From the UHGV virus genome UHGV-1440302: a stretch of 8,700 bases of DNA. One strand, 5' to 3'. Positions 4,787 to 6,787 of this stretch are shown here, piece after piece. Each line of letters starts with the position of its first letter. The first letter of the stretch is position 1. This stretch comes from a virus. A program made the translations under genes and the position numbers. The notes under the pieces were generated by a model. That model was not told the origin of the DNA. It did not search any database and saw nothing but the letters and a program-made list of their open reading frames with translations.

Positions 4787-6787
4787 ATGACTGAATCAGC
4801 CATCCTTACAGCGTATAACGCCATCGACGCGGCATCCGTTGCCCTTGGTCGTCCCTGCCTGACGCTGCCCGAACGCGAGCATTTTCGGACTGAGCGCGAT
4901 GTTGTCACCCGCAACCTTGCCACGCTTTCCCGCCAGTATCGTGATGAGGTCGGGACCTTATCTGCACAGCTCGCATTGCCACGTAACACGCAGGTTGACC
5001 GTGTGATTTACGGAATTAACTGCACGGATTTATCTCTCGCTGACAGGGGCAGGGCTGCCGGACTGGTTTCACAGTTTGGCTCGTTTTCGTTCACCGTGGC
5101 GCATGCTTTCTGCCGTCTGGTTTACCAGCTCGGTGTGAAAAATGCGCTGATGGCGCTTGAGTCCGCGCACCGTTTTGCTTTCTTCAATCAGGACGGAGAC
5201 CCTTATGAATTCTCGCTTTTCTGCACTGATGAGCAGATTGCTGAGGTGGCTGATTCGGTTGTTCGTGACTGCCTTGTTTCTCGGACCATTTATAGTGATG
5301 TACCAGAGCATCACCTTCTCAATGTGATGGCCTATTTTCAGGCCATCTCCGGCTTTGATTTCGCCCCCGTTTATGCCACTTATCATGAGCGTTACGGCGA
5401 TGAGGGATTGCTTAAGCGTCTGACTGATTTGGCTTTTGTCACCCGTTTCCTGCGGGTTATCCGTGACCAGCGGGTCAATGAGGTCTGTCGCATGCTCGGC
5501 ATACTGAACCGCAACGCGCCTTATATTTCTGACTGGCATCGTGACCTGTTTGCTGTCCGCAGTAAACGCGTGAAAAAGTATCTCCGGTCCTCCGGTGTCT
5601 TTGATGCGTTTAATGAGCTGGTCTGTACGCTGGAAGATGCGCATAACGCCTCTGTTTCGAATCCGAAAAACCGGATTGCTGAACTCTGCGTTCGTGGAAA
5701 GGCCGTCTGTGAACTGTCCGAAGATATGGGGCTGTCCGGCTACTTCATCGTGCTCACCACGCCGTCACGTTTTCACCCGACGACCAGTTTTAAGGTTGCC
5801 GGAAAATGGCATTCTCGTCCGAATAAAAAATGGTGGGAAGCAGGTTGCCCGACCGTTAAGGATTCGCATGCCTGGCTGAATACCGTCTGGCGTCGGGTCT
5901 GCCGCAGACTGGATAAAGCCGGTATCCAGATACCCGGTCTGCGCACGGTCGAGCCTCATGCTGACGGTACAACGCACTGGAATTTCCTGATTTACTGCAA
6001 TCCCCATGAGAGCGCAACGGTGCTTGCCATTTTCCGTGAAGAGGCCATGCGCGATGAGCCGGATGAAAAGGGGGCGAAAGAGCACCGTATTCGTATTGAG
6101 GCTATTGACCCTGAAAAGGGTGATGGTTTCCGTTACATCGTGAAGTACATCACCAAAATGGCGGGTGATGTCAGTGCGGATGGTATTACCGCCCTGAATG
6201 ACCGTTATTCTGCCCGTTCATTCTGTGATGCCGTCAGCCGTGCCGCCTGCTGGCAGAAAGCAACGCGCCTTCGCCTGTTCCAGTTCTTTGGCGTTCCCTC
6301 CGTTACGGCTTACCGCCAGATGCGCAGCTTCCGCGCACCGCTTGAGGCGCATCATATCAATATGCAGCAGTTCACGCCGCAGCAGGTCGCCGAACTGGAA
6401 GCCATCCGCATGGCCTGTGATGCAGGCGATTTCCGGACCTATATCCTGCTGAACGGCGGTTTCTTCTGTTCTGAACGTCTGCTTCGTCCGTTTTACGTTC
6501 AGCCGCAGGAAGGTGGTAAACCCCGTTTTAACCGTTACGGTGAATCCTGCGCACCGGTGATTTCCGGTTTCATGTTTGGCCCCGTTCCGGTCATAACCCG
6601 TTTTATGGGCTGTGTTGTCCGCCGTATGACCCCCGCAGAAAAAATCCGCGCAGAGGAAGTCAGAAGCGGCAGCAGCTATGAATCTGTGTTTATTTCGTCG
6701 GCTTCACGACACCGCACGACGCGCTCCCGCGCGGCGGGTGGGGGCGGCGAAGCCGACCCTTGGACTTGTGACAATAACTGTCCCTGA
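4787..6787 (+). CDS. Rolling-circle replication initiator of the phiX174 gpA / P2 gpA type (functional equivalent of gII), about 666 aa
   Basis: Long GC-rich ORF; ATG at 4787 (the frame is open from GTG 4766; no clear SD for either). Contains [10 protein letters not shown] (Tyr codons 6134-6136 and 6146-6148), matching the twin-tyrosine active-site motif recalled from phiX174 gpA (FYVAKYVNK). Divergent from the small repressor-like ORF. Stop TGA 6785-6787. Confidence 0.7.

Follow-up and report, generated by a model that had tools for sequence, protein, structure and literature searches.

UHGV-1440302 is a viral genome sequence of 8,700 nucleotides, and it raises the question of which kind of protein initiates replication in a filamentous phage and where on the phage DNA that protein would act. 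The whole of this stretch was analysed and is called the window here. An earlier note, made from the sequence alone, had pointed to a GC-rich open reading frame (ORF) of about 666 amino acids (aa) at 4787-6787, here called rep. It had taken the product for a large rolling-circle initiator of the phiX174 gpA/P2 gpA type and not of the gene II (gII) type found in the Ff phages (M13, f1, fd). Both statements were upheld. The frame is open from 4766 to 6787 on the plus strand and encodes 673 aa from the first GTG and 666 aa from the ATG at 4787. The shorter form has the length annotated by the Prokaryotic Genome Annotation Pipeline (PGAP) in related E. coli prophages, where the PGAP/NCBI name is "replication endonuclease", and also that of the 98%-identical cluster P0001, which has 2,063 member sequences. 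The G+C content was 54.5% in rep and 45.4% elsewhere in the window. We found that Rep is a divergent gpA-family initiator in which the metal-binding motif carries a fixed substitution, and that the 3' end of rep very probably contains its plus-strand origin.

Family membership and catalytic motifs of Rep

Rep was assigned by profile searches. The Pfam model PF05840 (Phage_GPA), which has a gathering cut-off of 31.4 bits, matched aa 213-464 with 167.2 bits (E = 6e-49), and phrog_91, 'nicking at origin of replication', matched aa 130-673 with an E value of 1e-128. When 1.84 billion representatives were searched exhaustively, 1,915 clusters matched at E <= 1e-3 and make up the family around Rep. 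Rep was matched by 382 phage records, with the filamentous phage VFJ at the top and the P2-like gpA proteins second. A sequence search of the PDB gave no match to Rep, Foldseek gave weak matches only against the same database, and no NCBIfam model matched.

The alternative is an initiator of the Ff gII type, or of the RstA type (Rep_trans) of CTXphi, that carries the Y-x-x-x-Y pattern by chance. The CTXphi initiator is a Rep_trans protein (PF02486; PMC4863604). Neither this model, which also covers the VGJphi and Pf initiators, nor the two Ff gII models PF05144 and PF05155 matched Rep at E <= 1. As a control, f1 gII matched PF05144 (1e-77) and PF05155 (3e-35). Direct comparison of Rep with f1 gII gave a best BLASTP E value of 0.52 and no phmmer match. 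Two things could be cited in favour of a gII-type protein. One was a sub-threshold match of Rep to PF23343 'REP_ORF2-G2P' (E = 0.005), which makes no link to Ff because P2 A and VFJ Rep match this gpA-associated model above threshold and f1 gII does not match it. The other was the sole local resemblance between the two proteins, nine residues in the metal-binding strand (RTVEPHADG, aa 386-394 of Rep; RTVEYHIDG, aa 45-53 of f1 gII; E = 0.55). This resemblance was not significant, and it could reflect a very distant common ancestry of both initiator families. A gII-type or Rep_trans identity was ruled out by the profile and pairwise searches, and we regard it as scarcely conceivable.

Conservation of the catalytic motifs was followed in 61 homologs, which consisted of 37 members of the close clade (Escherichia, Salmonella, Morganella, Providencia and Xenorhabdus; 40-98% identical) and 24 outgroup sequences. 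In motif 1, T324, P326 and S327 were invariant in 59-61 of the homologs. E389, P390, D393 and H397 in motif 2 and Y450, Y454 and K457 in motif 3 were invariant among all of them. The translation placed the two tyrosine codons of the Y-x-x-x-Y pattern at 6134-6136 and 6146-6148, exactly where the earlier note had them. An alignment with P2 A, phiX174 A and VFJ orf698 put Y450 and Y454, together with K453 and K457, in the same columns as GYIAKYISK of P2 A and FYVAKYVNK of phiX174 A. The latter string, which the earlier note had quoted, is indeed present in phiX174 A. The twin tyrosines aligned as that note had proposed, and the HUH motif, which it had expected to align as well, reads H-W-N. By analogy with these proteins, Rep would nick DNA with formation of a covalent 5'-phosphotyrosine link and would join strands. 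The predicted catalytic core has the HUH-nuclease fold in the structure model.

Motif 2 of Rep is H397-W-N399, on a strand predicted at 396-404, and the EPHH sequence reads EPHA. Asn was found at position 399 in 37/37 clade members, and His in 24/24 outgroup sequences including P2 A and VFJ. EPHA was likewise fixed in this enterobacterial inovirus clade (37/37). We also looked at the best 150 family representatives, 142 of which had a recognisable motif; the second His was kept in 133 and replaced by Asn in nine. Five of these nine belonged to the clade, and four came from unrelated clusters elsewhere in the family, which suggests that the change from His to Asn arose repeatedly and independently. 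An amide residue in place of the second His (HLQ/HUQ) is common in the HUH Reps of CRESS DNA viruses (with a circular single-stranded genome that encodes a Rep), including circoviruses and cruciviruses (PMC7468197). No relevant report of an H-U-N variant or of the motif strings was found in the literature searched. These results suggested that Asn399 may act as a functional metal ligand.

Several features weigh against placing Rep among the active gpA initiators. The PF05840 match is partial, covering profile positions 72-316 of 321, and its 167 bits compare with 415 for P2 A and 364 for VFJ Rep. With Asn for the second His of HUH and Ala for the second His of EPHH, the metal site is unlike that of the characterised members, and the catalytic competence of the clade is a prediction from sequence. 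Rep might then be a decayed, catalytically dead gpA homolog that has lost HUH, with replication depending on another initiator or the prophage being defective. The two substitutions would fit such a decay, and in one E. coli strain a Rep_trans-type gene adjoins a related prophage. However, H-W-N was retained across five genera and down to 40% identity with the remaining catalytic residues invariant, and the same replacement was found in the four unrelated clusters and has its counterpart in the CRESS-DNA Reps. In addition, no second initiator gene was found in the window by ORF and profile scans. Because the ORF is intact, H-W-N is kept to such a distance, P0001 is widely sampled and the 8.7-kb circle closes as for a replicating form, we concluded that rep is very probably live and not decayed. 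A dead Rep is highly improbable.

The predicted plus-strand origin

The earlier note had remarked that the nick site of this Rep family often lies inside or just upstream of the rep gene, and it had not located the site. The prediction obtained here, at the 3' end of rep, agrees with that remark. A search with the P2 13-mer CCTCGGAGTCCTG, allowing up to three mismatches, gave a single match at 4428, which was at chance level and was rejected. The phiX174 origin sequence (CAACTTGATATTAATAAC) was absent from the window. The predicted origin site has four mismatches to the P2 13-mer and was located only via synonymous-site footprinting. In a rep codon alignment from seven lineages, the identity at third codon positions was 0.61-0.77 over the last ~18 codons (6731-6787), compared to a gene mean of 0.375. 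This spike lies directly 3' of the least conserved part of the protein. The amino acids of the C-terminal tail (aa 629-666) were weakly conserved except for the stretch encoded by the block itself.

The 22-mer CCTTGGACTTGTGACAATAACT was unchanged in all E. coli relatives with Reps 58-63% identical and, more widely, across relatives with Reps 45-63% identical. In the Salmonella locus L090 it was also unchanged, and there it is read in another frame with a stop codon inside the block. In L092 and L093, which are Providencia- and Xenorhabdus-like with Reps 41-44% identical, 21/22 positions were kept and the block lies ~190 nucleotides (nt) past the rep stop. Both loci have a separate ORF of 66-69 aa (L092 3471-3671, L093 2476-2685) that runs over the stop codon of rep and terminates within the block; the region from the Rep core to the origin in these loci is therefore a distinct gene and not a C-terminal tail. 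The block was found with 19/22 identity at the 3' end of VFJ orf698, and with 17/22 identity in P2, at the annotated 'nick site at ori' (NC_001895 rep_origin 29892). An extended P2 26-mer gave 19/26 against the window.

In 63/94 related loci there was exactly one copy of the invariant core CCTNGGANTNNTGNCANTAACT, with 16 specified bases, always on the strand of rep and next to its 3' region, and 27 further loci of the 94 had it with one mismatch. All loci with a detectable Zot gene (21/21) carried the exact core. It did not appear in any of 200 shuffles of the window, and there was no second copy anywhere in the window. Because the conservation is independent of the reading frame, the encoded product is disordered and the site coincides with the annotated P2 nick site, 6758-6779 is very probably the plus-strand origin. 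From the correspondence to P2, Rep should nick at T6761/G6762 or at an adjoining position, within ~1 nt. Immediately upstream of the motif, P2 and the P2-like prophages also have hairpins, with other stem sequences, and we regard the upstream hairpin of the window as supportive only and not as a defining feature.

Some results speak against this assignment or limit it. The P2 26-mer match taken alone was moderately significant, since 1/300 shuffles reached 19/26. The nick position rests on the GenBank annotation of P2 and is uncertain by ~1 nt. The upstream hairpin is not universal, since VFJ-like phages, L092 and L093 have a weak one or none.

It could also be supposed that the 22-mer is kept for the peptide PWTCDNN, as a Rep binding or autoregulatory site or as a terminator, and that the real plus-strand origin lies in the large non-coding stretch that follows gene IV (3607-3960). 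In the Ff phages, both origins are in the intergenic region after gene IV, and the window is highly structured there (z = -8.8). Among the E. coli relatives the 22-mer keeps the reading frame, and the peptide it encodes is conserved. However, the block is in another frame with an internal stop in L090, L092, L093 and the VFJ-like phages, and no long ORF covers it in the loci L009, L014, L018 and L024. The tail that it encodes is disordered in the structure model. The block of P2 carries the annotated nick site, the motif is present in a single copy in the window, and the hairpin at 3663-3760 is already explained as a dif-like attP by an observed junction. An origin in 3607-3960 is improbable in our view, and 6758-6779 was kept as the predicted origin.

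The P2 origin has been described as conserved in related tailed phages (PV94, PMC3986222). A P2-type origin in filamentous phages was not reported in the literature searched, the coverage of which was incomplete.

Proposed replication scheme and relation to known phages

The mechanism proposed for Rep follows the established P2/phiX174 scheme by analogy. Rep would bind the replicative form, which is double-stranded, at the origin in the 3' end of rep (6758-6779, with the hairpin at 6741-6759). H391, H397 and N399 would hold a metal ion, and E389 and D393 would be close by. One of Y450 and Y454 would cut the plus strand at about T6761/G6762 and be joined covalently to the 5' end, and the host polymerase would be primed by the free 3'-OH. 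The host Rep helicase would probably be involved, as for P2 and phiX174; Rep helicase rather than UvrD is predicted for the group of gpA-type initiators (PMC4863604). After one round, the second tyrosine would cut the regenerated origin and the first strand would be religated to give a single-stranded circle. This circle might return to the double-stranded form, integrate at dif via the 3663-3760 hairpin or be exported through Zot and the secretin. In tandem prophage arrays, replication from origin to origin could free genomes without excision, as in CTXphi.

P2 A belongs to the same Pfam family and is about 26% identical to Rep over most of its length; both also have motif 1, the EPHxDGxxH strand and, on a single helix, the twin tyrosines. 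In P2 the origin core is likewise on the rep coding strand with a GC hairpin before it. However, P2 A has 761 aa with canonical H-W-H and EPHH, and the P2 origin lies ~410 nt before the stop codon, compared to the last 10 codons here, with 7/26 origin positions different. P2 is a tailed double-stranded DNA phage, and the window holds a filamentous single-stranded DNA (ssDNA) phage.

A similar arrangement is that of the Vibrio phages fs2 and VFJ (Saetivirus; Rep orf716 and orf698). They are filamentous and have a PF05840 initiator of ~700 aa followed by structural genes, pI and pIV. VFJ Rep was the best match in the phage collection (30% identity, 84% coverage), and the VFJ origin core is at the extreme 3' end of rep, as here, in a different frame with the stop inside the block. 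In contrast, VFJ Rep has canonical H-N-H and EPHH, the hosts of VFJ and fs2 differ from that of the window phage, and the rest of the genome is distantly related (pI 32.5% identical). phiX174 A has the twin-tyrosine motif 3, rolling-circle replication and an origin inside the gene, as here, and its alignment columns are shared with H397, Y450, K453, Y454 and K457 of Rep. It is 18% identical in the alignment, and its origin, which is unrelated, is situated within the 5' third of the gene. The gII protein of the Ff phages has the same role, being a plus-strand nicking initiator, and belongs to a different family; f1 gII has 410 aa and a single catalytic tyrosine module, LVAYlKH (PMC4863604 Table 2). 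The dif-integrating inoviruses of enterobacteria (YpfPhi, CUS-1, UPphi901) and CTXphi resemble the window phage in their size of ~8.7 kb, tandem dif arrays and divergent regulatory region (PMC4266046, PMC7307601).

A gpA-type initiator in a filamentous phage is an already known arrangement, since fs2, VFJ, phiLf and Cf1c are filamentous phages with phiX174/gpA-type initiators (PMC4863604 Table 2). The window phage is a new and divergent member of this group, and the current understanding is not overturned. What is added here is the fixed H-W-N variant and a precise predicted origin. A widespread group of filamentous prophages of E. coli, Salmonella, Providencia and Xenorhabdus is placed in the gpA-type replication group and not in the M13 or CTXphi groups. 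The predicted origin could be used for minimal replicons or phagemids and for the study of release from tandem dif arrays, and the fixed H-W-N offers a natural experiment on the variability of the HUH metal site.

The earlier note had further proposed a separate acquisition of the replication module, apart from the Ff-like morphogenesis module, and such a history was not demonstrated. Identity of the pI protein to that of fs2/VFJ, whose Reps are of the same type, was much the same as to that of f1 (32.5% and 30.3%), so there was no sign of a recent module swap. The sole positive hint of separate acquisition was the G+C content of rep, 9 points above the rest of the window. A prophage of E. coli E300010 (L095, hit H1) was considered as a case of the same morphogenesis module with another initiator and was rejected, as the Rep_trans gene there is part of another small element of the dif array. 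Tailed P2-like phages and inoviruses nevertheless have the same rep-ori cassette, which shows that it was once transferred from one type of phage to another.

A more speculative idea, which we rate as rather unlikely, is that rep-ori may be a portable unit common to tailed P2-like prophages and to filamentous phages with the same hosts. Because the 22-nt origin core is near-identical, the gpA of a co-resident P2-like prophage could nick the inovirus origin and replicate from it, or the reverse, leading to cross-activation or interference between two very different kinds of phage. Separately, the His-His-Asn site of the enterobacterial inovirus clade may have been rebuilt. If so, this metal site, which has lost two of the usual four histidines, would imply a different metal preference or regulation.

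Genome, integration site and neighbouring genes

The window contains a complete filamentous-phage genome, an 8.7-kb circle that was opened inside the pIII-like gene (Table 1). The morphogenesis genes included pI/Zot (PF05707, phrog_1675), a pIV secretin (PF00263, phrog_1012) and a pVI-like ORF. The Zot ATPase, the secretin, the coat-like ORF and the small circular genome identify it as an inovirus. Zot/pI and the secretin were likewise present in every H-W-N clade relative examined, which have the same genome type. A megablast of the whole window found no similar record in the phage collection. Related E. coli prophages were found in 272/5,426 complete genomes (~5%).

Table 1. Coordinates of rep, the predicted origin and other features of the window
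Feature	Position	Strand	Remarks
rep	4787..6787	+	666-aa rolling-circle initiator, P2 gpA / phiX174 gpA family (PF05840)
N-terminal region of Rep, helical	aa 1-268		
HUH-type nuclease core	about aa 269-515		
Motif 1, FIVLTTPS	5744..5767	+	aa 320-327; predicted strand 317-323
Motif 2, metal-binding strand	5951..5983	+	aa 389-399; non-canonical 'HUN' for HUH
Motif 3, YIVKYITK	6134..6157	+	twin tyrosines Y450, Y454; predicted helix 448-459
C-terminal domain, beta-rich	about aa 560-626		
Disordered C-terminal tail	aa 629-666; codons 6671..6784	+	predicted local distance difference test score (pLDDT) <50; overlaps predicted origin
Predicted plus-strand origin core, CCTTGGACTTGTGACAATAACT	6758..6779	+	synonymous-site conservation, P2 ori homology
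GC-rich hairpin, GGG.CGGC-GAA-GCCG.CCC	6741..6759	+	abuts predicted nick; DNA folds
98-nt hairpin, two inverted dif-like sites	3663..3760	+	inverted repeats; fold z = -8.8; after secretin gene
Small ORF	3961-4209		phrog_5219
Small ORFs, 71 and 60 aa	4206-4421, 4490-4672	-	phrog_2503 (3e-26, 6e-27)
GTTAAC repeats, 16-17-mers CTGTTAACAGTTTAACA, CTGTTAACACTTTAACA and inverted copy	4686..4762		between divergent small ORFs and rep
141-aa ORF	6818..7243	+	directly after rep; phrog_30648, function unknown
Coat-like ORF	7558-7818		phrog_2186, 7e-05
pIII-like gene	7830-8700 continuing into 1-641		in frame across window ends; circular genome opened inside gene

The arms of the 98-nt hairpin are dif-like. 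One reads AGTGCGCATAA-TGTGACACGCG-TTATGTTGAAA and the other AGTGCGCACAA-TGACG-TTATGTATAAA, and the whole is similar to CTXphi's single-stranded attP. In E. coli E100341 (L001), the right end of a tandem array passes from phage into chromosomal dif at position 13797, with 27/28 positions identical to dif, and the phage sequence reaches the XerC arm. The prophage of a second strain, E. coli E300010, adjoins hipBA. Integration at dif by XerCD thus uses 3663-3760 as its attP, and this is possibly also the region of a packaging signal or a minus-strand origin. The hairpin is counted among the phage's elements for handling its DNA and is separate from Rep. Because of the dif-like hairpin, the E100341 junction and the hipBA neighbour, the phage was classed as a dif-integrating inovirus. 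We hold with high confidence that rep encodes the rolling-circle initiator, a divergent member of the gpA family, of a filamentous E. coli phage that integrates at dif and whose complete genome has 8.7 kb.

Upstream of rep, the GTTAAC repeats are probable candidate operators for rep transcription, judged by their position. A sigma-70 scan gave no convincing promoter directly upstream of rep. The 71- and 60-aa ORFs are paralogs because both match phrog_2503, and the small ORFs at 3961-4672 occupy the place that repressors have in CTXphi-like phages. On the other side of rep, an ORF of 139-145 aa was found in all the clade members L086, L088, L090, L092, L093 and L094. The 6818-7243 product of the window showed no similarity to f1 gV or VFJ orf104. 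It stands at the gene V position of other inoviruses and, by position only, is a candidate ssDNA-binding protein. The middle of the pIII-like gene is a 39-nt tandem repeat encoding a Gly/Ser linker (GGSSGSGGSGSGS), and the repeats vary in number and sequence among strains, for example in L001.

Two observations were made on relatives. In L086 (455-1417), L088 (6919-7872) and L090 (181-1146), an IS110-family (DEDD) transposase gene lies directly upstream of rep and replaces the small minus-strand ORFs, which suggests that these relatives integrate by a route other than dif/XerCD. In L095, the space from hipA to the gpA-type prophage at dif is occupied by a small element (6585-8750) that has a divergent small ORF and its own Rep_trans-type initiator of 398 aa. 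It may represent a satellite, or what is left of a second filamentous phage in that array.

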